A stretch of DNA of 64,000 bases from Sodaliphilus sp. (GTDB lineage Bacteria; Bacteroidota; Bacteroidia; Bacteroidales; Muribaculaceae): assembly GCA_041815985.1 (NCBI GenBank), contig JBGYAB010000022.1, positions 4,796-68,795 of the forward strand, read 5' to 3'. Position numbers and translations under genes: made by a program. Below are positions 1 through 58,006 of the stretch, in pieces. Under the pieces are notes generated by a model, which had not been told where the DNA came from, searched no databases, and saw nothing but the letters and a program-made list of their open reading frames with translations. The first letter of the stretch is position 1. The number at the start of each line of letters is the position of its first letter.

Positions 1-297
1 GGAGAAAATGATGCTGAGTGCACCTTTGAACAATTCCGGCCTTAGAGTGAGAACGATGCCAAAGCACAAGCCGCCAATGGCAGGAATGATGCCCATGAAT
101 TCGATTATTTTGCGTTCTGCCCGTTGCAATGACACCATTCCGGCAAACAGCAATGAGGGAATGATGAATACAATGCCCAGAATTTGAGCTACAATTTTCA
201 TGAGTTCATTTCCATTGTCTTTGGAGAAAAACAAGAATAAAACGCCTGCTGCCAGTAATATCAAGTTAATGAGCAAGGCCGGGAATGCTTTTTTCAT
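1..297 (-). CDS. hypothetical small membrane protein, truncated by the window edge
   Basis: Not in the ORF track. My own reverse-strand translation from the ATG at 295-297 gives MKKAFPALLINLILLAAGVLFLFFSKDNGNELMKIVAQILGIVFIIPSLLFAGMV... It stays open to position 1 and consists of hydrophobic helices. Confidence 0.5.
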   Translation of the reverse strand, partial: MKKAFPALLINLILLAAGVLFLFFSKDNGNELMKIVAQILGIVFIIPSLLFAGMVSLQRAERKIIEFMGIIPAIGGLCFGIVLTLRPELFKGALSIIFS

Positions 298-1554: not shown

Positions 1555-3501
1555 ATGAGCTATTTAAAATTTGACAAGAACCTGATGATTAATCTTGAGC
1601 AATCTCTTCCCAAAGAGATGTTGCGCACCAATCATTTGGGGGCTTATCATTGTACAACAATCGTGGGAAGCAACAGCCGCAAGCAGCATGGTTTGCTGGT
1701 AATACCCATTCCTGAACTTGACGACAATCATCACATTTTGCTGTCGTCACTCGACGAAACGGTTATTCAGCATGGTGCACCGTTTAATTTGGGATTGCAC
1801 CGATATGCAGGCAATGTGTTTAGTCCCAACGGACACAAATATATTCGCGAGTATGATTGCGAACGGGTGCCCACTCACACCTATCGCGTGGGAGGAGTGA
1901 TATTGAAGCGCGAAAAATTGTTCATCACCGATGAAAACCGCATTCTCATTCGCTACACGCTTGTAGAGGCACACTCTAAAACCACACTTCGTTTCAAGCC
2001 GTTTCTTGCTTTTCGCAATGTTAATGAGCTTTGTGTTGAGAATAATGTCGCAAGCACCGGTTACGAAATGGTTGCAAACGGCATTTCCACTTGCATGTAC
2101 GATGGTTACCCTTCGTTATACATGCAATTGAGCCGTAAACCCAAGTTTGTTTTTGAACCACATTGGAACAAAGGCATTGAGTATTTTAAAGACGAGGAAA
2201 GAGGTATTCCATATAAAGAAGATTTGTATGTGCCGGGATATTTTGACATTGACATTAATAAAGGGGAGAGCTTGATTTTTTCGGCAGGAACCAGCGAGGT
2301 AAAGCCGAGAAACCTCGGAAAGATGTATGAGTATGAACTGAGTATCCGCACTCCACGCACAAGTTTTTACAATTGCCTGAAAAACAGTGCAAAGCAGTTT
2401 TGTATTAGAAATGGCGAAGATAGCTATGTACTGGCAGGTTATCCGTGGTTCACGACAAGAGCTCGCGATCAGTTCATTGCACTCCCCGGTTGCACGCTTT
2501 CTACTCATTGCCAAGAAAAGTTTGAAGCAACAATGGAGACCGCTTCTCGGGCATTCGACAACTGGATTAACCATGGTGTAATCGATATCCGACTGCAAGG
2601 CCTTGATTTGCCCGATGTGCCATTGTGGGCAATTTGGGCAGTCCAGTGCTATGCCCATTACAATGGTATGACCAAAACGCGCAATCGCTATGGTGCATTG
2701 TTGTATGGTTTAATTAAGTTTGTGATTAATGGTAAACACCCTAATTTGTCGTTGAACGCCAACGGACTTGTGTGGACCGATGGAACAGATAAACCCATGT
2801 CGTGGATAGATGCTTCGAGATCCGACGGAAAGCCCTTGATAGCGCGCACAGGCTTTTTGGTTGAATTCAATGCTCTATGGTACAATGCACTGATGTTTTT
2901 GCAGGAACTGTTTGCCGATGACGAAAGTTATGAGCATGAAATTGCTTGTTGGCACAAGTTGAGCGTAAAGTGCAGAGAGGCGTTTGTTGAAATGTTCTTG
3001 AATGAACATGGCTACCTCTATGACTATGTGAACGGAACTTATGCCGATTTGAGCGTTCGTCCCAACATGGTCATAGCCATAGGACTTGACCATTCGCCAC
3101 TCAACCGCAGTCAGTGCAAGCGTGTACTCGATATTGTCACACGAGAATTGCTCACTCCCAAAGGATTGCGCACACTAAGCCCCAAGAGTTATGGCTATAA
3201 CCCTTGGTACGTAGGCAACCCCGAACAGCGTGAGCAGGCCTACTATTCCGGCTCTGCACGACCGTGGCTCATGGATTTTTATTGTCACGCCTACATTAAG
3301 GTGTTTGGCATGAGTGGTGTTTCTTTTGTTGAGCGCATGATGATTGGGTTTGAAGACGAGATGTCGCAAGGAGGCATTGGTACGCTCTCGGAACTTTACG
3401 ACGGAAATCCTCCCTTTACAGGACGAGGAGCCGTTAGTTTTGCCGCCAATGTCGGAGGCATTTTGCGTGTGCTTCGAATGCTCAAGAATTTAGATGTGTA
3501 A
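1555..3501 (+). CDS. glycogen debranching enzyme-like protein (amylo-alpha-1,6-glucosidase family)
   Basis: 648 aa. The AGYPWFTTRARDQFIALPG segment resembles the GDE C-terminal catalytic core. Syntenic with GT4 and GH57 genes. Confidence 0.75.
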   Translation: MSYLKFDKNLMINLEQSLPKEMLRTNHLGAYHCTTIVGSNSRKQHGLLVIPIPELDDNHHILLSSLDETVIQHGAPFNLGLHRYAGNVFSPNGHKYIREYDCERVPTHTYRVGGVILKREKLFITDENRILIRYTLVEAHSKTTLRFKPFLAFRNVNELCVENNVASTGYEMVANGISTCMYDGYPSLYMQLSRKPKFVFEPHWNKGIEYFKDEERGIPYKEDLYVPGYFDIDINKGESLIFSAGTSEVKPRNLGKMYEYELSIRTPRTSFYNCLKNSAKQFCIRNGEDSYVLAGYPWFTTRARDQFIALPGCTLSTHCQEKFEATMETASRAFDNWINHGVIDIRLQGLDLPDVPLWAIWAVQCYAHYNGMTKTRNRYGALLYGLIKFVINGKHPNLSLNANGLVWTDGTDKPMSWIDASRSDGKPLIARTGFLVEFNALWYNALMFLQELFADDESYEHEIACWHKLSVKCREAFVEMFLNEHGYLYDYVNGTYADLSVRPNMVIAIGLDHSPLNRSQCKRVLDIVTRELLTPKGLRTLSPKSYGYNPWYVGNPEQREQAYYSGSARPWLMDFYCHAYIKVFGMSGVSFVERMMIGFEDEMSQGGIGTLSELYDGNPPFTGRGAVSFAANVGGILRVLRMLKNLDV

Positions 3502-10086: not shown

Positions 10087-10108
10087 GTTATTAGAAACCA
10101 ATTTGGGT
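10087..10108 (+). repeat. solo terminal repeat of the MITE-like family, abutting copy A
   Basis: gttattagaaaccaatttgggtt matches the right-end terminus (gttctaataaccaatttgggtt). It sits directly before the TA and the left end of copy A, forming a palindrome. Confidence 0.6.
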
Positions 10109-10310
10109 TAAACCCAAATCGGTCATTAGAACCCGTACTGATTTTGTTTGAATGTTGAACAAATTGGTTGTCTTTTTTTTGAAGACGTAGCGGGCTACGT
10201 CAAGAAAAAACGACAACCAAGATGCCAACAAGCAGACAAAAGCAGTCGGGAAGCAACGCGATGGACCGTTCTTTGTAAACCTTAGCGTTCTAATAACCAA
10301 TTTGGGTTTA
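10109..10310 (+). mobile_element. MITE-like repeat, copy A (long form, 198 bp plus TA flanks)
   Basis: Left TIR AACCCAAATCGGTCATTAGAAC (10111-10132). The reverse complement of the right end (10287-10308) is AACCCAAATTGGTTATTAGAAC, 20/22 identical. TA on both flanks. Internal core shared with copies B, C and D. Confidence 0.8.
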
Positions 10311-10344
10311 ATGATGTTGCCTTCTGTTTTGAGAAAAGCAGATG

Positions 10345-30145: not shown

Positions 30146-31021
30146 ATGTCAAATGAAGTAGATCTTTCATCAAAAGAATGGTGTGACCTTATTTTTGAAG
30201 GTAAGAATAAAGATTTCGGTGCTTATGTCTTGCGTCAAACCTCTACGCAACGCCATAACAAAGCCGTTCTCTATACAATTATTGGTTTCATTGCGGTAGT
30301 TCTCTTGGCTTATGCTTGGAATACCTATCAGGCATGGGAAGCCGAGCGTGAAGCCGCCAACAATGTAGAGCAAGAAACAACTGCAATCGACTTTGGAGCT
30401 TCGGAAGAGGAATCGGAAGAAGAACAAGAGATGATTGAACAAAAGGAGGAAACTCCTGAACCCGAAGTTGAAGAAGTTGCTCAACAGGCTGTAACGGAAT
30501 TGAAGATTGTGCCCGACGACAAGGTAACAACTCCTCCTCCAACAGTCGATGAAATCAAGGAAAATGAAGCTGCAATTGGTACGCAAAACATCGAAGGAGC
30601 TATTGGTGGTCTTAATACGCCTCCTCCAACAGCAGCCCCCGTTGCAAAGGTTGAAACAACCATTGCAATTAAACCGGTTGAAGAAAAGAAGGAAGAAAAA
30701 AATGAAGTCTTCACTTCGGTTGAGCAAATGCCTCAATTCCCCGGTGGCGAAGCTGCACTGTTGAAGTACATCGCTTCTCACTTGCAATATCCGGCTATGG
30801 CTGCCGAGCAAGGTATCGAAGGTCGCTGCGTTGTGCAATTCGTTGTAACCAAGAATGGCTCTGTAGGCGAAGTAAAAGTTGCTCGCTCATTAAGCCCCGA
30901 TTGCGATGCCGAGGCAAAACGCGTGTGCAAGGGCTTGCCTAAGTTCACTCCCGGCCGTCAAAACGGTCAAGCGGTGAATGTGTGGTACACCTTGCCCATC
31001 ACCTTCAAGTTGCAGAAGTAA
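30146..31021 (+). CDS. tonB: energy transducer TonB
   Basis: 291 aa. TM anchor, a Glu/Pro-rich spacer, and a C-terminal TonB domain MPQFPGGEAALLKYIASHLQYPAMAAEQGIEGRCVVQFVV. Confidence 0.85.
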   Translation: MSNEVDLSSKEWCDLIFEGKNKDFGAYVLRQTSTQRHNKAVLYTIIGFIAVVLLAYAWNTYQAWEAEREAANNVEQETTAIDFGASEEESEEEQEMIEQKEETPEPEVEEVAQQAVTELKIVPDDKVTTPPPTVDEIKENEAAIGTQNIEGAIGGLNTPPPTAAPVAKVETTIAIKPVEEKKEEKNEVFTSVEQMPQFPGGEAALLKYIASHLQYPAMAAEQGIEGRCVVQFVVTKNGSVGEVKVARSLSPDCDAEAKRVCKGLPKFTPGRQNGQAVNVWYTLPITFKLQK

Positions 31022-31175: not shown

Positions 31176-31300
31176 TAATCCCCAATCGGTCATTAGCGTT
31201 TGCACTGATTTTGTTTGAATGTTGAACAAAAACTGTCGGGAAGCAACACGATGAATTGAAAAATGTAACCCTTAGCGGTCTAATGACCGATTGGGGGTTA
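31176..31300 (+). mobile_element. MITE-like repeat, copy B (short form, 121 bp plus TA flanks)
   Basis: Left TIR ATCCCCAATCGGTCATTAGCG. The reverse complement of the right end is ACCCCCAATCGGTCATTAGAC. TA on both flanks. Lacks the 77-bp internal module of copy A. Confidence 0.8.
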
Positions 31301-31585
31301 TCGGCATGTTGTGCCAAGCAAATTGAACATAAAAAGCCTAAACTCCTCATGAAAAGATTTTGATGTCTATGTGAAAGAGACAGGAAATCCGTTTATATTC
31401 TTGTGTGCGTGTGTGCGCGATCTTATCTTTGTTAAGATTTTATAATTACATGGGATTTTCAATGATTATTTTGGTAAAAATAATTACCTTTACCAATTAA
31501 AATAACTACTTTTATCCATATTAAAAGCTCGGCGACGATAAACCTTTGTTTTATCTTTTCGTCTAAGTAAGAAAATTACGATTTA

Positions 31586-31882
31586 ATGAACAATAGTGGT
31601 AATGGACTATTTCGGGGAATAAGGGTGTTTTTTGGCATTTTCATGGTGCTGGTTTACTTCGGAATGGCTTATTTGATGGTTATTAATTTTTTCGGTTGGA
31701 GGCAAGCACCTTTCACTTGGTTGCGTTGGTTTTTTGCGTTGGTATTTGGGCTTTATGGCATCTATCGTTGCTACCGTCAGGTGAAAGGCATAGATTACTA
31801 TCGTCTCAACAATGACCGCAAAAGCGAAAAAAGCGACAACCGCATTGATGAACTTATTAAAGAAGAACATAAAGATGAATAA
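31586..31882 (+). CDS. small two-helix membrane protein (unknown function)
   Basis: 98 aa with two hydrophobic helices. Its stop overlaps the start of the PstS-like gene (ATGAATAA). Confidence 0.55.
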   Translation: MNNSGNGLFRGIRVFFGIFMVLVYFGMAYLMVINFFGWRQAPFTWLRWFFALVFGLYGIYRCYRQVKGIDYYRLNNDRKSEKSDNRIDELIKEEHKDE

Positions 31883-32861
31883 GTTTTTTAATATACAGCT
31901 TTGTTTTGTCCTGCTCTTGTCGGTGCTTGCTTCGTGCTCGAAATACAGCGACAGGCCTAATGGGGCTGTTGTTGGCATGGCAAAGGTCTATTGCGATGAA
32001 TCGTTTAAAAACGTGCTTGAACAGGAAATTCAGGTTTTTGAATTTCAGTATCCGCAAGCCTTCATCAAAGATCGATACATGAGCGAATCGGCGGCTCTTG
32101 ATTCTCTCATGAAGGGCAAGGTAGACCTAATTATCACTTCGCGCGACCTCACTCAGCAGCAAAAACACTATCTTGCCACTCACGACCGTGCTTACAGATC
32201 GCGCATGATAGCCGTTGATGCAGTAGCCATTATCGTAAACAAAAACAGCGACATTGACGAACTCTCGATGAGTGAGTTAAAGGACTTGTTCACCGGCAAA
32301 TATCGCAAATGGGGGCAATTGGTGCCCACCAACATGCGCAACGACTCCATTAAGTTGCTTTTCGATGGCAATGCCACCGGGGTTATTCACTATATCAAGG
32401 ATAAATTTTTGGGAGGAAAGGATTTTCCGTTTCAAGTATTTTCGGCACATTCTACCGATGAGGTTTTCAAGACCATCGAGAAAAATCGCAATGCCGTAGG
32501 GTTCATTGGCGTGAGCTGGATTGCCGATGACATGGGAGCCAGTCAAAAAGAAGCCGGTGAACGCTACAAGGAATTGAATCAAGAGCAAAAGGAGGCTTCG
32601 CTCATCGATTTCACCGGTCGGGTGAAAGTGCTCAAAGTGCGACGCAACGACTTGCTCAAAGGTTGCAAGCCCTATCAAGCCTACATCAACGATGGCACCT
32701 ATCCGCTGTTTCGCAAAATTTTTGCAATCGATGCCGCTCCTCTTGGTACAATCGATCATAGTTTTTTCACTTTCCTTACTGGAACGATAGGACAAAAGAT
32801 TATTTTGCAAACGGGCATCATGCCCGGTGCCGAACCTGTGAGAGCGGTAGAGGTAGAATAA
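31875..32861 (+). CDS. PstS-family (PBP-like 2) substrate-binding lipoprotein
   Basis: The track ORF starts at 31812. I prefer the ATG at 31875 (MNKFFNIQLCFVLLLSVLASC lipoprotein signal). DLIITSRDLT and AVDAVAIIVNKNS motifs of phosphate-binding-protein-like domains. Confidence 0.8.
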   Translation: MNKFFNIQLCFVLLLSVLASCSKYSDRPNGAVVGMAKVYCDESFKNVLEQEIQVFEFQYPQAFIKDRYMSESAALDSLMKGKVDLIITSRDLTQQQKHYLATHDRAYRSRMIAVDAVAIIVNKNSDIDELSMSELKDLFTGKYRKWGQLVPTNMRNDSIKLLFDGNATGVIHYIKDKFLGGKDFPFQVFSAHSTDEVFKTIEKNRNAVGFIGVSWIADDMGASQKEAGERYKELNQEQKEASLIDFTGRVKVLKVRRNDLLKGCKPYQAYINDGTYPLFRKIFAIDAAPLGTIDHSFFTFLTGTIGQKIILQTGIMPGAEPVRAVEVE

Positions 32862-34646: not shown

Positions 34647-34690
34647 ACTCCGGTTTTGTCATCGATTGCAGAACCGGAGTTTTTTCTTTT
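34647..34690 (+). terminator. rho-independent terminator after the TPR gene
   Basis: 9-bp stem actccggtt/aaccggagt (34647-34655 and 34672-34680) followed by tttttctttt. Confidence 0.7.
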
Positions 34691-34758
34691 AACCCAAATG
34701 AGAAGACGATACACCCCCAAAAGCGTAAGTCTTTGCTGTCTAATGATCAATTTGGGGT
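34690..34758 (+). repeat. MITE-like repeat, copy E (decayed mini-copy, ~67 bp)
   Basis: The left end TA-ACCCAAATG and the right end gtctaatgatcaatttggggt match the family termini. The interior is largely lost. Confidence 0.55.
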
Positions 34759-37665: not shown

Positions 37666-40600
37666 ATGTCGATTAGACGGAATTATAGTAAAATATCATT
37701 TACTCTGTTTGCTTGCTTAATAGGTTTCTATTTTGCAACGTCTGTTTCTTCTTATGCTCAAGACAAGAAGTTTGAAACAAAAATAACTCCTCCACCTTCG
37801 GTTCCCGATATTAGAAAAGGAAATGGCAATGACACCATCAAGTTGCCCTACGGCGTTAAGGACAAGTTGTCAAATGCCTACGGAGACATTCGATTGGTGA
37901 ATGATGCCACCGATTTGAAAAATCCCGGCAATGTCACAACCACAGCCGAGTTTGACCCCGAAACGGGTTATTATATCATACACACCCGCATAGGCGACAA
38001 CGACATCATAACTCCATTTTTGCTTTCTCCGCAAGAGTATAACGACATTGCCCTTAGGCAGTCTATGCAAGAATATTATCGGCAAAAAATGTCGGAATCT
38101 ATTGAGAAAAAGAAAGACGAACCTTTCAATTTCTTGGATATGCAATTTGGCTTAGGCCCTTTGGAGTCGGTGTTTGGCCCCGGTGGCGTACAGCTCAAGA
38201 CTCAAGGTTCTGTAACCATCAACATGGGAGTTAAAAGCAATAAAACAGACAACCCGGCATTGTCGGTTGCCGCCCGCCGTAAAACCTATTTCGATTTCGA
38301 CCAGAAAATTCAAGCAACAGTTGCCGCATCGGTTGGCGACAAAATGAAGTTTAACATGACTTATAACACCGATGCTACTTTTGAATTTGATAACAAGAAC
38401 CTTAAACTTGCCTACGAAGGCAAGGAAGATGAAATCATCAAAAACATCGAGGCCGGCAACGTGAGCATGACCACCGGGTCATCACTCATTAGGGGTAGTG
38501 CGGCACTGTTTGGCATCAAGACCAAGTTGCAATTCGGCAAACTCACCGCAACAGCATTGGTTTCTCAACAAAATTCAGAATCACAAACTGTTAATACCAA
38601 AGGTGGTTCTCAAACGACTCCATTCTATGTGACCGCTGACAATTATGACCAAAACCGTCACTTTTTCTTGTCACATTTTTTCCGCGACAACTACGACAAT
38701 TGGTGCTCACGCCTACCGTTGGTGTCTTCGGGAGTGAATATTAATCGATTGGAAGTTTGGGTAACCAACAAGCGTGGCAACTTTAACGAATCGCGCAATA
38801 TTTTAGCTTTTATGGACGCAGGAGAGAACAAGCGGCTTGCAAGCGACCATTGGGTGCCCAACCTTGCAGCCGACAACCCATCGAACTCCTCAAACAATGA
38901 ATTGGAAGAAATAAAAACCAACTATCCCGAGGCTCGTTATATCGACAAGGTTGCTACAGCTTTGCAACCGCTCGAAGCCTATGGCATTCAAGGAGGTCAG
39001 GATTATGAAAAGGTGGAGAGTGCGCGCTTGTTGTCGTCTTCGGAGTACACCTTGAACAGTGCGTTAGGCTATATTTCGCTTAACACGGCACTGAATGCCG
39101 ATGAAGTTCTTGCAGTTGCCTACCAATACACCTATCGTGGCAAAACCTATCAAGTGGGTGAGTTCTCGGGCGACATCGACAGCACTTCGCAATCTCTTTA
39201 TGTGAAAATGCTGAAAGGCACAACCGCTTCGCCTGCAAAGCCCATGTGGGACTTGATGATGAAAAACGTTTATTCCTTAGGAGCCTATCAAGTGTCTAAA
39301 ACTAATTTTAAACTGAATATCAAGTATTTGAGCGATACCACCGGCACCGAGTTAAACTATGTTCCTGCCGGCAACATCAATGGCACACCATTGCTCCAAG
39401 TCATGAATCTCGATCGGTTAGATGCCAATAACGAACGAAACATCGACGGTCGCTTTGACTATATTGAAAATTACACCGTCAACAGCTCAAAAGGTAAAGT
39501 GATATTCCCTGTTGTAGAACCATTTGGTTCGCACCTTTACAGCAAGATGGGAGGAGGGGCTATTGCTGACCGTTATGTTTTTCAAGAACTTTATGATTCT
39601 ACCTTGACCGTAGCTCGGTTGTATTCCGACAAGAACAAGTTTGTGCTCGAAGGCGAGTATCAGGCATCATCGGGCAATGTCATCAAGCTCAATGCCATGA
39701 ATGTGCCACGAGGTTCGGTTGTGGTGACTGCCGGCGGTGTGACTTTGACCGAGAATAGCGACTATACCGTCGATTACAGCATGGGAACGGTGACGATTAC
39801 CAACCAAAGCATCATCGATGCCGGCACCAGCATCAGCGTGTCGATGGAAAATCAATCGATGTTCAACACCCAACGCAAAACTTTGATGGGATTGGACTTG
39901 AACTATGCTTTCAACAAGAATTTTCATGTTGGCGGAACTATCATGCACTATGGCGAAAAAGCTTTGACCGAAAAAGTGTCGATTGGCGATGAACTTGTGA
40001 ACAACACCATTTGGGGAGCTAACGTATCCTATAATTCCAATTTCATGTGGCTCACCAATTTGCTCAACAAAATTCCCACAGTAAATGCAACTGCCCCCTC
40101 TTCGTTGAACTTTACCGGGGAGTTTGCACAATTAATTCCGCATCAGGCTTCTACCGGCTCTAATGCCGGCAGTTCCTACATCGATGATTTTGAATCGACA
40201 CAATCGGGCATCGACCTCCGTTCTCCTTATTCATGGTTTTTAGCATCGACACCCTATGATGGCAGTGCCAACGCTTTGTTTCCCGAAGCTGCACTTTCAG
40301 ACAACATTGATTATGGTAAAAATCGTGCTCTGCTTTCATGGTACTATATCGATCGTTTGTTTACTCAGCGCAATTCTTCTTATGCTCCCGGCTACATTAA
40401 GAATGATCTTGACCAACTGTCGAACCCGTATGTTCGTGAAATTCCTTACAGTGAAGTTTTTCCCGGACGCGAATTGAACTATGGCGAATCTTCGATGATT
40501 CAAACCCTAAACCTGTCGTATTACCCTTCGGAACGCGGCCCTTATAACCTCGATGCTGCCAACATTGCTCCCGATGGCAACCTCTTAAATCCCGAGAAAC

Positions 40601-43600
40601 GATGGGGAGGCATCATGCGCAAACTCGATAACACCAATTTTGAGTCATCTAATATTGAATATATCCAGTTTTGGCTACTCGATCCATTTCTTGATGAAAC
40701 GGCCGATAATAAAGAAGGCGGTGATTTCTACATCAACTTGGGTGAAGTGAGTGAAGATATTTTGAAAGATGGATTGAAAGCCTATGAAAACGGATTGCCC
40801 ACCGATGGCAGTTCCTCCTATATCAAGAATACGACATGGGGCAAGGTGTCGTCACAAACGTCCTTAACCTATGCTTTCGACACCTCTTCGGGCTCTCGCA
40901 TTGTGCAAGACGTGGGCTTGAATGGCTTGTCGACCGAAGAAGAGAAAAACTTTTCGACCTATAAAAACTTTGTTGACCGCCTGCGTCAAACCTTGCCTTC
41001 GACAACCATTGCAGAAATGGAAGCCAATCCGTTCTCGCCAATCAACGACCCGGCCGGCGATAACTATCATTTCTATCGTGGCTATGACTATGATGAACAA
41101 AAAATGTCCATTCTCGACCGATACAAGCATTATAATGGAACAGAGGGCAACTCTCTCTCACAAGACGATGCACGAGAAGCACTCTACCAGTCGGCACGTA
41201 GTGTGCCCGATGTCGAAGACATCAATCAGGACAACACGTTGAACGAGTATGAACGCTATTTCCAATATCGCATTTCCATTCGTCCCGAAGACTTGGTTGT
41301 TGGCAAAAACTACATTGTCGATAAGCACACCACAAAACTTTCTACTCGCAATGGGCAAAATAAAGAAGTAACGTGGTATCAGTTCAGCATTCCGTTGAGT
41401 GAATATGAAAAAGTGGTTGGTTCGTTGAGCGATTTCTCTACAATCCGCTTTATTCGCATGTTCATGACCAACTTCAAGAAACCCACTCACCTGCGTTTTG
41501 CAACACTTGAACTTGTGCGTGGCGAGTGGCGTAATTATGGTTATGACTTAAATCAAAACGGCAATGTTCCTGCCCGAGGTGCAATCACGGTGAATGCGGT
41601 TAATATTGAAGAAAATGCCAGTCGCGAGCCGGTGAACTATGTGCTTCCTCCCGGTGTGAATCGCATTGTCGACTCGGGACAATCGCAAATTACCCAACTC
41701 AACGAACAGTCGATGCAAATGAAAGTCGAGGGCTTGCTCTCGGGCGATGCTCGTGGCGTATATCGCAACACAAGTCTTGACCTGCGCACCTATAAACGCT
41801 TGCAAATGTTTGTACACAACGAGGCATTTATCGACGATGCAACCTCACTGAGCAATGGTGACGTTTCGGTGTTTGTGCGATTGGGTACAGATATCAAGAA
41901 CAATTACTACGAATATGAAATTCCATTGACGGTAACTGCGCCCAACAGTCATTATAGCACCAACAGCTCGGCCGACCGGTTGAAGGTGTGGCCGGAAGAA
42001 AACATGCTTGATATTGACCTGGGAGTTCTCACCGGAGTGAAGAAAAACCGCAATGCCGCCAAGATGGCAGGCCAAGCCGATGTGTCTTACGGCTCTCGAT
42101 ATACCGAACAAGATCCTTCTCACCCCAACGACAGGATAACCGTGAGGGGCAACCCATCGTTGAGCGATGTGAGGGTGATGATGATTGGTGTGAGAAACAA
42201 CTCCAATGCCACCAAGAATTGCGTGGTGTGGGTCGACGAACTACGTGTGACCGACTTTGACCAAGAAGGCGGTTGGGCGGCAAAGGTCAATGCTAACTTG
42301 AATTTGAGCGACATTGGCACGGTGAACTTCGGTTTCCACAAAGAAACCACAGGATTTGGTTCTGTCGACCAGAGTTTGACACAACGCCGCCTCGACAACT
42401 ACGATCAAGTGAACGTCGCCGTGCAGGTAGACATGGGACGTTTCCTTCCCGAGAAAGTGAAGTTGAAAGCTCCGGTCTATTATTCTTATACAAACGAAAA
42501 GACTACGCCAAAATACAATCCGCTCGATCAAGACGTGCTGTTGAAAGATGCCATTGAGGCTTGCAACACCAAGGCGCAAAAAGATTCAATCAACGATTAT
42601 GCCTTAGTGCGCCACACGGTTCAAAGTTTCTCTGTATCGGGGTTGAAGTTTGATGTAAAGAGTAAAAATCCCATGCCTTGGGATCCTGCCAATTTCACGT
42701 TCAGCTATTCGTTTAACAAGCAGCACACGAGTGACCCTAATAATGTGTATGAGAACACCAACGATTATCGCGGTAGTTTTCAATACAGTTGGACGCCCTA
42801 TGCCAAACCGTTCAGGCCGTTCAAAAAATTGATTAAGGAAAAGAACAAGCACATGAAATTTTTCAGAGAATGGGAATTTCTTTGGTTGCCGGCCTCTATT
42901 GCATTTAACAGCAACATCTCGCGCTACTACTACGAACAGCAAACTCGCAATTCTACCGATGTCAACATTGAGTTGCCGGTGTCGGTGAGTAAGAATTTCT
43001 TGTGGGATCGTCAGTTTGCATTGTCGTGGAACTTTACGAAATCATTATCGGTTTCACTGAACACCAACACCACGGCTCACATTCTCGAACCGGTGGGGCA
43101 GGTGAACAAGCAACTTTTCCCCGATGCTTATCGTGATTGGAAAGACTCGGTGTTGACCAGCATAAAACATTTGGGCACGCCGTGGGCCTACAACCAAACG
43201 TTTACGGCTTCTTATAGGGCACCTTTCAACAGTATTCCGATTTTGAGTTTTATTTCGGCCAATGCAACCTACAATGCAACCTATAATTGGGATCGTGGAA
43301 CAACGGTAGACGATGTGTTTGCCGGAAACACGATTGCCAATCAAGCTTCGTTCAATTTTGATACCCGCCTGAGCATGGAGCAACTCTACAACAAAATTCC
43401 GTATTTAAGAGAGGTGAACAAGCGTTTCTCCAACAGCGGCAGCAAGCGTCAGGGGCAAAACCAAAACAGCAAGGAACCCAAGAAGAAACCCAAAAAGTTT
43501 GATCGCACATTCAAGCTGTCCAACGACTCATCTATCGTCATCAGTCACAACATGAATGTGGATAAAGTGCGTGTCACAGCTACCACAACCGATGGAAAAC

Positions 43601-45147
43601 GTTTCCCTGTGAAATTCAAGGTGAAAGATAAAAATAGCATTGAAATTGAAAATAGGGGAGACCAAAACATCAAGTTTGTCATCACCGAAATCCAGAAGAT
43701 TGAAAAGAAGACTTTCCTTGATGAATTTGCACAATATGCGGCTCGTTTTGTGATGAGCACAAGGAGCGTGAGCGTGAGATTTCGCAACACTCGGCAACTT
43801 TCATTGCCACAATTCATTCCCAATGTGGGCGATGTCTTCGGGCAAAATAATCACTACGATGTGATGGCTCCGGGACTTGACTTTGCTTTTGGTTTGACCG
43901 ATGAAAGCTACATTGAAAAAGCACGCGACCGAGGGTGGTTGTTGCGTGATGAAAACATGACCAGTCCTGCCATTTTCAGCCGAACGCAAGAGTTCAACGC
44001 CGAGGTGCAGCTCGAACCGATTCGCGGGCTTAAAATCACCTTGACCGGCAACCGCACCGACAATCGCACCAATCAAGTGCAGTTCATGTTCGACGACATG
44101 ACTACACTTTATTCCGGCAGCTATACCAAAACGCACATGGCCATTAAAACGGCCTTGCGCAGGGTGAGTAGCGACAACAATTATGAAAGTGCGGCTTTCG
44201 CTCAATTTTTGACCAATATTCCCATTGTTGCCGGCAGAATACAATCGCAGTATCATGGGCGTAATTATCCTAATGCAGGATTTATTGCCGGTACGGTCTA
44301 TGCCGGGCAACCATTTAGCGACACCAACGGTTCGGTCAGCTCCACCAGTAGCGATGTGCTCATTCCGGCTTTCTTGGCAGCCTATTCGGGCAAGAGTGCC
44401 AAAAACGTTTCTCTAAGTCCTTTTCCGGGATTGAAAGATATCATGCCAAACTGGCGAGTAACCTACGATGGCTTGACAAAAATTCCATTCTTCAAAAAGC
44501 ATTTCAAGAGCTTTACGCTCAATCATGCCTATCAGTGCACCTATTCTGTTGGTTCTTTCTCAAGCTATAGCGATTGGGTGGCAATCGGGCAAGGGCTTGG
44601 ATTTACCCAAGATGCTTTGACGGGCAACCCGGTGCCTTCTTCGCCCTACAACATTTCATCGGTCACCATCACCGAGAAGTTTGCACCATTGATAGGCTTG
44701 AATGCAACGCTAAGTAACAACATGACGTTTAATTGTGAGTATCGCGACAGTCGCACTCTTTCGTTGAACTCTTCGGCCGGTCAGCTTGTTGAAGCATTGT
44801 CCAAATCGTTTGTGATGGGTGCCGGCTACAAGATTGCCGATTTTAATTCTGTTTTGAAAATCAGGAAAAAACAGCAAGGCGTGAGCAATGATCTCACGTT
44901 AAATCTCGACTTCCAGTTGAGCAACAACACGGCATTAATACGAAAAATTGAGACCAACACGGCACAGGCAACAAGTGGTACACGCACATTGAGCTTTAAT
45001 TTTACTGCAAATTATGTGATGAGTAAGCGTGTGACCATCGGTGCATTCTTTGACCATCAGGTCAATACACCATTGGTTTCTACAAGTGCCTATCCCACGA
45101 CAAGCAGTAACTTTGGTCTCTCTTTTAACATGAACCTTGCCAAGTGA
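37666..45147 (+). CDS. sprA: type IX secretion system translocon SprA (Sov)
   Basis: 2493 aa giant outer-membrane protein with a signal peptide. The size, beta-strand-rich composition and ruvA-adjacent position are characteristic of Bacteroidota sprA. Confidence 0.9.
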   Translation: MSIRRNYSKISFTLFACLIGFYFATSVSSYAQDKKFETKITPPPSVPDIRKGNGNDTIKLPYGVKDKLSNAYGDIRLVNDATDLKNPGNVTTTAEFDPETGYYIIHTRIGDNDIITPFLLSPQEYNDIALRQSMQEYYRQKMSESIEKKKDEPFNFLDMQFGLGPLESVFGPGGVQLKTQGSVTINMGVKSNKTDNPALSVAARRKTYFDFDQKIQATVAASVGDKMKFNMTYNTDATFEFDNKNLKLAYEGKEDEIIKNIEAGNVSMTTGSSLIRGSAALFGIKTKLQFGKLTATALVSQQNSESQTVNTKGGSQTTPFYVTADNYDQNRHFFLSHFFRDNYDNWCSRLPLVSSGVNINRLEVWVTNKRGNFNESRNILAFMDAGENKRLASDHWVPNLAADNPSNSSNNELEEIKTNYPEARYIDKVATALQPLEAYGIQGGQDYEKVESARLLSSSEYTLNSALGYISLNTALNADEVLAVAYQYTYRGKTYQVGEFSGDIDSTSQSLYVKMLKGTTASPAKPMWDLMMKNVYSLGAYQVSKTNFKLNIKYLSDTTGTELNYVPAGNINGTPLLQVMNLDRLDANNERNIDGRFDYIENYTVNSSKGKVIFPVVEPFGSHLYSKMGGGAIADRYVFQELYDSTLTVARLYSDKNKFVLEGEYQASSGNVIKLNAMNVPRGSVVVTAGGVTLTENSDYTVDYSMGTVTITNQSIIDAGTSISVSMENQSMFNTQRKTLMGLDLNYAFNKNFHVGGTIMHYGEKALTEKVSIGDELVNNTIWGANVSYNSNFMWLTNLLNKIPTVNATAPSSLNFTGEFAQLIPHQASTGSNAGSSYIDDFESTQSGIDLRSPYSWFLASTPYDGSANALFPEAALSDNIDYGKNRALLSWYYIDRLFTQRNSSYAPGYIKNDLDQLSNPYVREIPYSEVFPGRELNYGESSMIQTLNLSYYPSERGPYNLDAANIAPDGNLLNPEKRWGGIMRKLDNTNFESSNIEYIQFWLLDPFLDETADNKEGGDFYINLGEVSEDILKDGLKAYENGLPTDGSSSYIKNTTWGKVSSQTSLTYAFDTSSGSRIVQDVGLNGLSTEEEKNFSTYKNFVDRLRQTLPSTTIAEMEANPFSPINDPAGDNYHFYRGYDYDEQKMSILDRYKHYNGTEGNSLSQDDAREALYQSARSVPDVEDINQDNTLNEYERYFQYRISIRPEDLVVGKNYIVDKHTTKLSTRNGQNKEVTWYQFSIPLSEYEKVVGSLSDFSTIRFIRMFMTNFKKPTHLRFATLELVRGEWRNYGYDLNQNGNVPARGAITVNAVNIEENASREPVNYVLPPGVNRIVDSGQSQITQLNEQSMQMKVEGLLSGDARGVYRNTSLDLRTYKRLQMFVHNEAFIDDATSLSNGDVSVFVRLGTDIKNNYYEYEIPLTVTAPNSHYSTNSSADRLKVWPEENMLDIDLGVLTGVKKNRNAAKMAGQADVSYGSRYTEQDPSHPNDRITVRGNPSLSDVRVMMIGVRNNSNATKNCVVWVDELRVTDFDQEGGWAAKVNANLNLSDIGTVNFGFHKETTGFGSVDQSLTQRRLDNYDQVNVAVQVDMGRFLPEKVKLKAPVYYSYTNEKTTPKYNPLDQDVLLKDAIEACNTKAQKDSINDYALVRHTVQSFSVSGLKFDVKSKNPMPWDPANFTFSYSFNKQHTSDPNNVYENTNDYRGSFQYSWTPYAKPFRPFKKLIKEKNKHMKFFREWEFLWLPASIAFNSNISRYYYEQQTRNSTDVNIELPVSVSKNFLWDRQFALSWNFTKSLSVSLNTNTTAHILEPVGQVNKQLFPDAYRDWKDSVLTSIKHLGTPWAYNQTFTASYRAPFNSIPILSFISANATYNATYNWDRGTTVDDVFAGNTIANQASFNFDTRLSMEQLYNKIPYLREVNKRFSNSGSKRQGQNQNSKEPKKKPKKFDRTFKLSNDSSIVISHNMNVDKVRVTATTTDGKRFPVKFKVKDKNSIEIENRGDQNIKFVITEIQKIEKKTFLDEFAQYAARFVMSTRSVSVRFRNTRQLSLPQFIPNVGDVFGQNNHYDVMAPGLDFAFGLTDESYIEKARDRGWLLRDENMTSPAIFSRTQEFNAEVQLEPIRGLKITLTGNRTDNRTNQVQFMFDDMTTLYSGSYTKTHMAIKTALRRVSSDNNYESAAFAQFLTNIPIVAGRIQSQYHGRNYPNAGFIAGTVYAGQPFSDTNGSVSSTSSDVLIPAFLAAYSGKSAKNVSLSPFPGLKDIMPNWRVTYDGLTKIPFFKKHFKSFTLNHAYQCTYSVGSFSSYSDWVAIGQGLGFTQDALTGNPVPSSPYNISSVTITEKFAPLIGLNATLSNNMTFNCEYRDSRTLSLNSSAGQLVEALSKSFVMGAGYKIADFNSVLKIRKKQQGVSNDLTLNLDFQLSNNTALIRKIETNTAQATSGTRTLSFNFTANYVMSKRVTIGAFFDHQVNTPLVSTSAYPTTSSNFGLSFNMNLAK

Positions 45148-53263: not shown

Positions 53264-53464
53264 TAAACCCAAAACGGTCATTAGAGTCCGCTAAGGCTTA
53301 CAATTATTGATTCATCGTGTTGCTTCCCGACTGCTTTTGTCTGCTTGCCGGCATCTTGGTTGCCGTTTTTTCTTGACATAGCCCGCTACATCTTCAAAAA
53401 AAGCCAATCAGTTTGTTCAACATTCAAACAAAATCAATACGGATTTTAATGACCGATTGGGATT
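53264..53464 (-). mobile_element. MITE-like repeat, copy C (long form, ~199 bp, inverted relative to copy A)
   Basis: TA then AACCCAAAACGGTCATTAGAG at the left. The right end is taatgaccgattgggatt. The interior is collinear with the reverse complement of copy A, including the 76-bp module. Confidence 0.8.
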
Positions 53465-53516
53465 GAACTGCTTAGGTTTTTTGAGAGTTTTTTTACACAT
53501 ATTTAGGGAACAAAAG

Positions 53517-55903: not shown

Positions 55904-55978
55904 TAACCCAAATCGGGCATTAGAGATTGCACAGAAATGGTTGAGAGGGCTTTTTTGTGGTTTTCAATCGGTTGCTTC
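55904..55978 (-). repeat. MITE-like repeat, copy F (truncated half-copy)
   Basis: TA then ACCCAAATCGGGCATTAGAG, and further in ttcaatcggttgcttc (compare ttcatcgtgttgcttc in copy C). No second terminus is found. Confidence 0.55.
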
Positions 55979-57232: not shown

Positions 57233-57885
57233 TGGTTGAATTGAAAGAAAAAGGATACATAGAACAACTCATTGCCGAAGGCGAACATGAGCATCAAGAT
57301 TTTAAATATCAAATCACCGATGCCAAGAAAATCGCACGAAGCATTTCGGCGTTTGCCAACAACTCGGGAGGACACCTGTTGGTGGGCGTGAAAGACAACG
57401 GGCACATTGCCGGAGTGCGTAGCGAAGAAGAAATCTACATGATAGAACAGGCAGCAACATTGTGTTGTCGTCCCGAGCAAAGGGTAGAGTTCTCTATTTT
57501 TAAGATTGAAGGGAAAAGCGTTTTGAAAGTCGACATTGCCGAGGCTTGCGACAAGCCGGTAAAAGCCCTTGATGAAACCGGGCGATGGAAAGCCTACTAC
57601 CGTGTTGCCGATGAAAACGTGCTTGCAAGTGGCATGCATGTGAAAGTGATGCAACAACAAAATGCCGATTGTGGCAATGCTGTCATTAGCTTTTCTGATA
57701 GAGAAAAAACGCTTATCGACTATTTGAATACACATGGCGGTATTTCTTTAAACGGCTATATGAAACTTGTTCATATTTCACGCCGTTCTGCAGAAGAAAG
57801 TATGCTCAAACTGTGTGAAATGGGTGTTATTAAGCTCAATTATCACAATGGGCATTGCGTGTTTACCAAAGGCGAATTTATTTAA
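57232..57885 (+). CDS. AlbA_2 (Schlafen-type) domain protein with a C-terminal winged-helix region
   Basis: The track ORF starts at a GTG at 57220. I prefer the ATG at 57232, which overlaps the upstream stop (TAATG). EHEHQDFKYQI...ISAFANNSGGHLLVGVKDNGHIAGV is typical of the AlbA_2 domain. Confidence 0.65.
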   Translation: MVELKEKGYIEQLIAEGEHEHQDFKYQITDAKKIARSISAFANNSGGHLLVGVKDNGHIAGVRSEEEIYMIEQAATLCCRPEQRVEFSIFKIEGKSVLKVDIAEACDKPVKALDETGRWKAYYRVADENVLASGMHVKVMQQQNADCGNAVISFSDREKTLIDYLNTHGGISLNGYMKLVHISRRSAEESMLKLCEMGVIKLNYHNGHCVFTKGEFI

Positions 57886-58006
57886 CTCAAATCGGCTATT
57901 AGACGACTAAGATTTACATTTTTCGGCTCATCGCGTTGCTTCCCGACTGCTTTTGTGCAACATTTAAACAAAATCTGTGGGATCTCTAACGAGCGATTTG
58001 GATTTA
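57883..58006 (-). mobile_element. MITE-like repeat, copy D (short form, ~120 bp plus TA flanks)
   Basis: TA then ACTCAAATCGGCTATTAGACG at the left. The right end is ctaacgagcgatttggatt then TA. The core gttgcttcccgactgcttttgt is shared with copy C. The left TA plus the first A form the stop codon of the AlbA_2 gene. Confidence 0.75.

Follow-up and report, generated by a model that had tools for sequence, protein, structure and literature searches.

The 64,000-nt stretch of Sodaliphilus sp. contig JBGYAB010000022.1 analysed here (hereafter the window, numbered from its first nucleotide) has a GC content of 43–49% and a housekeeping gene content, with genes for glycogen enzymes, transketolase, the NQR operon, ExbB-ExbD-TonB, RuvA, RecQ, a class 3 FBPase and LuxS. 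Between these genes lies a short repeated element with inverted ends, which a preliminary description, made from the sequence alone, had placed at six sites (A to F). All six are present where claimed and could be aligned with each other (Table 1). Four are full copies, namely A and C, which represent a long form of ~200 bp, and B and D, which represent a short form of ~120 bp; E and F are remnants. The data presented below make it quite probable that these copies belong to a family of non-autonomous DNA transposons, i.e., MITEs (miniature inverted-repeat transposable elements), of Bacteroidales.

Within the 64-kb window, the core sequence GTCGGGAAGCAACRCGATG occurs four times against 0.02 occurrences expected, and the terminus AACCCAAATCGGTCATTAG is found ten times with up to three mismatches, again against 0.02 expected. 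Repeat detection paired A with C over 114 nt at 89% and over 73 nt at 88% identity, and B with D over 119 nt at 80%. The same procedure returned terminal inverted repeats of 25 nt (92%) in A and 21 nt (95%) in B; with a length of 18–25 bp and a complementarity of 92–95%, the ends of these two copies exceed the minimum of 10–15 bp expected of a MITE. A profile of 8 long copies, run with nhmmer over the 64 kb, matched A–D strongly and F and E weakly, with no other matches, so that the initial inventory of copies is complete at the sensitivity of this profile.

All copies are intergenic and located 0–157 bp from a gene end, as judged from the open reading frames (ORFs) and Pfam domains. For instance, copy C begins 15 bp past the recQ stop codon, in the spacer that separates this gene from the convergent C1 peptidase gene, and remnant E directly follows a terminator-like hairpin. 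The element is non-coding, as previously suggested: each frame is disrupted in the majority of the long copies, and none is open across all 8. Likewise, none of the ~50 genes of the window that were scanned carries a transposase or integrase Pfam domain. The units are 120–200 bp long and contain neither a transposase nor any other ORF, and the ORFs of 69–88 residues drawn across copies A, B, and D are spurious.

Table 1. Positions of the element copies in the window and of the parts of copy A.
Feature	Position	Strand	Remarks
Right-end terminus fragment TTATTAGAAACCAATTTGGGTT	10087–10108	+	Adjoins copy A
Copy A, long form	10108–10311	+	Element proper 10112–10307 (ACCC...GGGT); TTAA on each side (10108–10111 and 10308–10311); nhmmer E 1e-55
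Left terminal inverted repeat of A (ACCCAAATCGGTCATTAGA)	10112–10130	+	Partner at 10289–10307
Long imperfect internal hairpin of A, stem of ~60 bp	10132–10250	+	From RNAalifold; apex GACGTAG-CGGG-CTACGTC at ~10183–10200
77-bp segment of the upper hairpin	10164–10240	+	In long copies A and C; absent from short copies B and D
Mostly unpaired region of ~40 nt	10251–10288	+	GGGAAGCAACRCGATG...; conserved among window copies, variable between lineages
Copy B, short form	31176–31300	+	Between a tonB-like gene (stop at 31021) and a PstS-like gene
Remnant E	34690–34758	+	9 nt of the left and ~35 nt of the right end kept; nhmmer E 0.07
Copy C, long form	53264–53465	−	nhmmer E 3.5e-53
Remnant F	55904–55978	+	Left terminus and ~30 nt of interior remain, right end gone; nhmmer E 0.04
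Copy D, short form	57882–58006	−	Element 57885–58003; TTA flanks at 57882–57884 and 58004–58006

The fragment that abuts copy A on its left was initially taken for a solo terminus. The terminus is indeed there, but its independence is doubtful. All 14 of its last 14 nt (AACCAATTTGGGTT) are identical to the right end of A (10294–10307), including the two substitutions that are private to A; the fragment appears to have been duplicated locally from that end, which is more likely than an independent copy of greater age.

The consensus of the ends is 5′-ACCCAAATCGGTCATTAG...CTAATGACCGATTTGGGT-3′, which corresponds to terminal inverted repeats of 18–20 bp. In the orientation of A, the unit consists of a terminus, a long hairpin, a mostly unpaired stretch of ~40 nt and the inverted terminus. 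The coexistence of long and short forms, already noticed in the preliminary description, can now be traced to a single segment: exactly 77 bp (10164–10240) of the long form are missing from the short one, lost between two ACAAA direct repeats located at 10159–10163 and 10236–10240. The deletion junction is common to B and D in the alignment, and the short forms still fold. Such a shared junction would fit either a single slippage deletion that later spread or a recurrent hot spot.

Two properties of the family had been missed by the preliminary description, namely that its interior is a long conserved hairpin with covariation and that it is widespread beyond this genome. The hairpin was studied using an alignment (A3) of 8 long copies from 3–4 lineages, which was folded with RNAalifold and in which the base pairs were then counted. 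The resulting structure comprises a terminal helix plus one long hairpin. Among the 19 pairs of the terminal helix, one is compensated on both sides, three show one-side changes (mostly to G-U) and 10 are broken only, with 87.5% of the cells paired. By contrast, the internal hairpin counts 40 pairs, 14 of which are compensated on both sides, 16 changed on one side (mostly to G-U) and just 4 broken only; its cells are paired in 92.6% of cases, compared to 35–47% in slid controls. The covariation score of the whole structure was reached by none of 500 shuffles, a figure to be read knowing that the sequences are few and related and that the structure derives from the tested alignment itself. The termini are conserved as sequence, since their helix has one compensated pair against 10 broken-only pairs out of 19, while the internal hairpin is conserved as structure. 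The pattern of the terminal helix would fit a protein-binding site.

The hairpin also displays a strand bias. Across the 8 long copies we counted 43 G-U cells against 12 A-C cells, and the consensus folding energy is −58.6 for the forward and −41.6 for the reverse strand; taken singly, 5 of the 8 copies are more stable as the forward strand, and the two strands are about equal in the other 3. Both this bias and the covariation must be considered together with the fact that processes acting at the DNA level can also maintain palindromes. An intrinsic terminator was considered and discarded as the identity of the hairpin, because a T-run precedes the stem and an A-run follows it on both strands; furthermore, no terminator was called inside A. 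A retron-like non-coding RNA was likewise rejected, the copies being dispersed and no reverse transcriptase being found nearby.

The family was also searched for outside the window. Scanning IMG/VR for CCAAATCGGTCATTAG returned 28 loci, ~20 of which carry TA followed by 1–2 nt and CCCAAATCGGTCATTAG. The latter are Bacteroidales-type phage or mobile-element contigs of 30–58% GC, and the interiors of their elements are mutually unrelated. Overall, the same termini bound elements of ~30, 58, 66, 150, and 190–200 bp in at least 20 viral or mobile-element contigs (contigs are designated below by L numbers). Long forms homologous to A and C are found in L085, L086, L093, and L115, 150-bp elements in L102 and L112, and mini-elements of 66 bp in L098 and L111, of 58 bp in L100 and of 30 bp in L088. 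Other phage copies have one end only, positioned directly after a stop codon, as in L096 (1533–1541, TAA stop). No transposase enclosed by these termini was found in the at least 28 viral loci. BLAST of copy A and of the 30-nt terminus against plasmids and GenBank phages returned nothing but one solo terminus on a Prevotella replicon. This is a solitary, perfect 17-nt terminus CCCAAATCGGTCATTAG located between genes at positions 3001–3017 of L113 (Prevotella sp. oral taxon 299, NC_022111.1), with no recognisable partner; the replicon is listed in PLSDB as a plasmid and has a length of 1.77 Mb.

Occupied and empty sites could be compared in two cases (Table 1 lists the window copies only). L112 is a phage contig in which the sequence CGCCAAAGCAA-TAA is followed by a 150-bp element, running from ACCCAAATCGG to CCGATTTGGGA, and then by TAA-AATGGGATTTC. 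In L164, which comes from a related phage, the same site reads CGCCAAAGCAA-TAA-AATGGGATTTC. The flanks of the two contigs are 94–99% identical, and their difference consists of the 150-bp element and the duplicated TAA. In the second case, L097 and L101 represent the same integrative element, being 98.8% identical over 2.7 kb. The breakpoint in L097 falls exactly at the terminus (CCAGAA-TA, followed directly by AACCCAAATCGG), and its insertion site is uninterrupted in 15 related contigs, i.e., L101 and 14 others. Corresponding scans for L102 and L098 retrieved only occupied contigs. Elements with these termini, belonging to sister subfamilies, insert precisely and duplicate a short TA-containing target; we infer that the subfamily of the window moves likewise. 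Presence/absence polymorphism and target duplication are thus established for the sister subfamilies; for the copies of the window the evidence is indirect and consists of flanking repeats and spacer lengths.

L097 presents further features of its own. An insertion sequence (IS) of the IS982 family (L097 1–96, L101; also L130–L134 and L138–L157), with a 324-residue transposase from a protein cluster of 1262 members, sits in the ACCCAAATCGG-type element carried by this Bacteroidales integrative element. The L097/L101 element has, immediately internal to its terminus (positions 100–250, minus strand), three copies of CATTAGAAAAA, one of them inverted. Next to these is a possible start, ATG CGA AAC TGT GAC ATA AAG TTT GTA AAT; the IS982 insertion interrupts it, and it could be the disrupted 5′ end of an autonomous element.

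The length of the duplicated target was assessed by comparing the flanks of complete copies, whose ends were fixed as N-CCC...GGG-N. Identical 3-bp repeats, either TTA or TAA, flank nine copies (L102, L112, L098, L093, L078a, D, L085, L100, and L088), which include every copy with pristine termini. Flanks of the TTAA type are found in A and L086, and imperfect ones in B, C, L081a, and L115. The base that precedes the left TA is T in 7/7 TTA cases, and the one that follows the right TA is A in 2/2 TAA cases (L112 and L085). As the element begins with A, duplications of 2, 3, and 4 bp are all equally consistent with the L112/L164 pair, and only the 3-bp TAA gives symmetric ends. Thus, the TA claimed at the flanks is always present, but the flanks are best read as 3-bp TTA/TAA duplications, sometimes TTAA, around fixed ends. 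In two genes the stop codon is shared with the element: the TAA stop of the AlbA_2 gene next to D (57883–57885) and that of a DegT-family gene on contig L078 (2376–2378) both consist of TA from the flank and the A with which the element begins.

Which transposase mobilises the family can be approached from these flanks. The preliminary description had seen in them the signature of a TA-duplicating IS630/Tc1-mariner transposon, from which the copies would derive and by which they would be moved. A TA does precede each well-preserved end, and in formal terms the L112/L164 pair could have arisen by duplication of a 2-bp TA. However, this signature is not established, because a TA duplication would leave most copies with unequal ends (TA and CCC being separated by 1 nt at one end and by 2 nt at the opposite end) and would make the T (7/7) or A (2/2) beside the TA a coincidence, two points that a 3-bp TTA/TAA duplication explains, as found in the nine complete copies. 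Since, in addition, neither an IS630-type nor any other transposase with these termini was encountered, we regard this origin as unlikely. Duplications of 3 bp, TNA or TWA, are typical of the IS5/IS1031 and PIF/Harbinger families. A parent of the IS5-superfamily type (IS1031-like or resembling the PIF/Harbinger "Tourist" elements), or from another unsampled family, would account for the symmetric ends of those nine copies and for the TTAA of two more, and we propose it tentatively as a possible source; against it stand the lack of any such transposase among the sequences retrieved, the equivalence of 2-, 3-, and 4-bp duplications in an element that starts with A, and the imperfect flanks of four older copies. 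The IS982 family came into consideration on account of the transposase that adjoins a ACCCAAATCGG terminus in L097 (a match of a 25-residue peptide), of family ends that also begin with 5′-AC and of the TA that flanks some copies; IS982-derived MITEs are known in Bacteroidota, as exemplified by MITECca01 of Cardinium (PMC9769881). Yet the copy in L097 is a separate IS with its own ends (ACGTGAGTTCGACGAA), nested ~165 bp inside the other element. The ~18 further IS982-family copies from Bacteroidales plasmids and viral contigs all end in AC[CG]T[GC]AGTTCG[GA][GA]ATAAG and not in ACCCAAATCGG, only the AC being in agreement, and their duplications are longer (5, 6, and 8 bp). IS982 parentage was therefore discarded as very improbable.

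Further copies exist in the same species, as the preliminary description had anticipated. A search of protein collections with the spurious 69-residue ORF spanning copy A led to a single called ORF (P0001, 46 aa; L078 9154–9294), deposited in the public record, which runs across another copy of the element. L078 is a different contig of the same species and carries two further copies, so that the dispersed set comprises six copies in the window and two on this contig. The first is a 157-bp variant whose left 102 nt are 98% identical to A; the second is a half copy, whose terminus supplies the DegT-family stop mentioned above. In the Logan assembly SRR28738886, also of this species, two contigs (L136 and L137) stop inside A (~10234) and B (~31229), respectively, the latter exactly at the point of copy B where long and short forms diverge. 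In a related species, too, contigs L080 and L082 end inside its copy. Such interruptions occur because multi-copy repeats break assemblies. No empty site was found at A, B, C, D, or F in the near-identical draft GCA_041822825.1 and the Logan assembly, whose contigs were either identical to the window or terminated within a copy. Apart from these two, the host has no close sequenced relatives in the collections searched, the best homologue with a name coming from a Muribaculaceae bacterium at 62% identity. A scan for the 19-nt core in collections of species-representative genomes and of metagenomes gave 27 and 49 hits, respectively, all due to chance according to a BLAST check; these came mostly from high-GC genomes, and the species of the window is evidently not in either collection.

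Orthologous spacers of related species were then compared. The order OmpA-lipase-AlbA_2, followed by the convergent FBPase-LuxS pair, is kept in relatives at 68–73% protein identity. The spacer between the AlbA_2 and FBPase genes measures 207 bp in the window, where D accounts for 119–124 bp; in L083 it is empty and 95 bp long, and in L081 it reaches 270 bp. That between the OmpA and lipase genes, which holds F, is 271 bp long in the window and 135–137 bp in relatives, and the one between the recQ and peptidase genes is 321 bp long in the window (201 bp of which belong to C) and 101 bp in L083. Three orthologous spacers are thus shorter in relatives by about the length of an element. The longer spacer of L081 is occupied by a diverged long-form copy that shares 75% identity with A; its orientation is the same, and it comes directly behind the terminator of the FBPase gene. 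L081 also carries a mini copy of ~70 bp.

The claim of a MITE-like, multi-copy, non-coding family with terminal inverted repeats and TA-containing flanks is supported by these results, and several observations nevertheless weigh against it. The comparison of occupied and empty sites comes from sister subfamilies that share the termini and differ in their interiors from the subfamily of the window. No recent movement is seen in the species, all checked sites being occupied in the sole near-identical strain. For the window copies, empty sites are deduced from spacer lengths in species too diverged to be aligned, and a single old insertion, passed on by inheritance, could account both for copy D and for its counterpart at this site in the related species. 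No transposase with these termini was found in the window, viral contigs or plasmids; the whole-genome collections were scanned with the core motif. Finally, a decaying MITE would not usually keep its interior so strongly conserved. Alternatively, the unit might primarily be a gene for a structured non-coding RNA or a cis-regulatory RNA, with the terminal repeats as its closing helix and the copies as paralogous genes. The 14 compensated pairs out of 40, the excess of G-U over A-C cells and the greater stability of the forward strand, in the consensus and in 5 of the 8 copies, all point in this direction, albeit from just 8 sequences of 3–4 lineages and a structure drawn from the same alignment. 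On the other hand, the putative closing helix is almost devoid of covariation and conserved as sequence, the same termini surround unrelated interiors, and insertion polymorphism with target duplication is observed. Moreover, copy A is antisense to both neighbours with no promoter identified. As previously stated, no Rfam family is matched at gathering score in the window; with a permissive E-value, copy A gave only sub-threshold matches to generic hairpins and terminators. We therefore judge an RNA gene to be quite an unlikely identity for the unit. It is somewhat more plausible, although still doubtful, that the hairpin and the lineage-variable unpaired stretch form a functional, strand-specific module of RNA or single-stranded DNA riding on transposon ends; the element would then be a mobile small-RNA or structured-RNA gene spreading among Bacteroidales chromosomes and phages, and the MITE would not merely be a decayed IS, an extension that we hold to be equally speculative. 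Extragenic palindromes of the REP/BIME type, handled by a RAYT (IS200/IS605-like) transposase, share with our copies the intergenic location, the repetition and the capacity to form hairpins. The 18–20-nt terminus is not self-palindromic, and two inverted ends 30–200 bp apart with a duplicated target are not produced by the single-strand insertion of IS200/IS605; with no Y1 transposase in the window either, this explanation is extremely improbable.

As a MITE, the element would function as follows. The terminal repeats would be bound and cleaved by a transposase whose gene lies elsewhere. Insertion would take place into short A/T targets, TTA or TAA and sometimes TTAA, which would then be duplicated. 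Because of this TTA/TAA target, copies would gather just past stop codons and terminators, and a TAA stop can be completed by the A at the start of the element. When the T-W-A that receives the insertion lies at the very 3′ terminus of a gene, an immediate stop is created, which may explain why such sites are tolerated. The original form of ~200 bp would carry the long internal hairpin, maintained by selection on one strand as RNA or single-stranded DNA; most likely, it would affect how read-through transcripts are processed or how stable they are, or else take part in the propagation of the element itself. The ~120-bp form would have originated by slippage deletion of the upper hairpin between the two ACAAA repeats.

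Two other details of the window were recorded. About 500 bp (31300–31900) separate copy B from the PstS-like gene; here, the ORF at 31586–31882 overlaps the start of the ORF at 31812–32861 in a different frame; a frameshift, a wrongly called start or pseudogenisation at the 5′ end may account for this. After ruvA, a plus-strand ORF of 2493 residues extends from 37666 to 45147.

MITEs remodel gene ends, cause assemblies to break and can connect phages with hosts. Both a Muribaculaceae-like chromosome and phage contigs of 30–58% GC carry the conserved termini described here, and an active transposase should therefore circulate widely in gut Bacteroidales. Correct annotation of the family would remove spurious small ORFs laid over its copies, one of which is already present in public protein collections, and would account for those stop codons to which the element contributes a part. 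If the hairpin turned out to be a functional RNA, it would be a case in which transposition disseminates a structured RNA. The points that stand out are thus the missing transposase and the conserved, strand-biased hairpin.

Our search of the literature for the terminus sequence, the assembly accession and Bacteroidales MITEs yielded no description of this family, which is apparently unnamed, while its kind (MITE) is well known. A catalogue published in NAR in 2024 comprises 81,380 distinct MITEs in Bacteroidota, some of which are shared by Bacteroides or Prevotella and their phages (PMC11602168). Such sharing between hosts and phages matches our observations. The hairpin, termini and duplication of the present family are not described in the catalogue, although the family may be among its entries. 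MITECca01/02 of Cardinium (PMC9769881) is a MITE of ~240 bp from Bacteroidota that was likewise curated manually, but there the parent ISCca4 is present with matching termini, whereas the IS982-family termini tested in our case do not match.

The parallel with the Correia elements of Neisseria (CREE/NEMIS), drawn in the preliminary description, appears fair as far as the architecture is concerned. In both families the elements are short and non-coding, have terminal inverted repeats and TA-containing flanks, and are located between genes near gene ends; both have long and short classes that arise by internal deletion, and in both the mobilising transposase has not been identified. The present family differs in that it belongs to another phylum, its duplication is more likely of 3 bp and its interior is a covarying hairpin of ~60 bp instead of an IHF site; no sign of promoters or of RNase III processing emerged from our analysis. 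To our knowledge, the 26-bp terminal repeat of the Correia elements has no sequence similarity to these termini. The ERIC/IRU elements of enterobacteria and Yersinia resemble our copies in that transcripts of the whole unit can adopt a long stem-loop, in that internal insertions or deletions generate variants of different size, and in their intergenic location; their sequence, however, is unrelated, and in our family the termini are shared among unrelated interiors and insertion polymorphism is precise. As for the Tourist-like MITEs and the IS5 superfamily (IS1031, PIF/Harbinger), they have in common with our copies the 3-bp TTA/TAA duplication that best describes the flanks, but no such transposase is linked to these termini, and the likeness concerns only the duplication pattern and general family traits. 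Overall, the architecture is closest to the Correia and ERIC-type elements and the flanks are closest to those of Tourist-like MITEs, while what is new here is the internal hairpin, with its compensatory changes and G-U strand bias, and a short form that corresponds to a 77-bp deletion.

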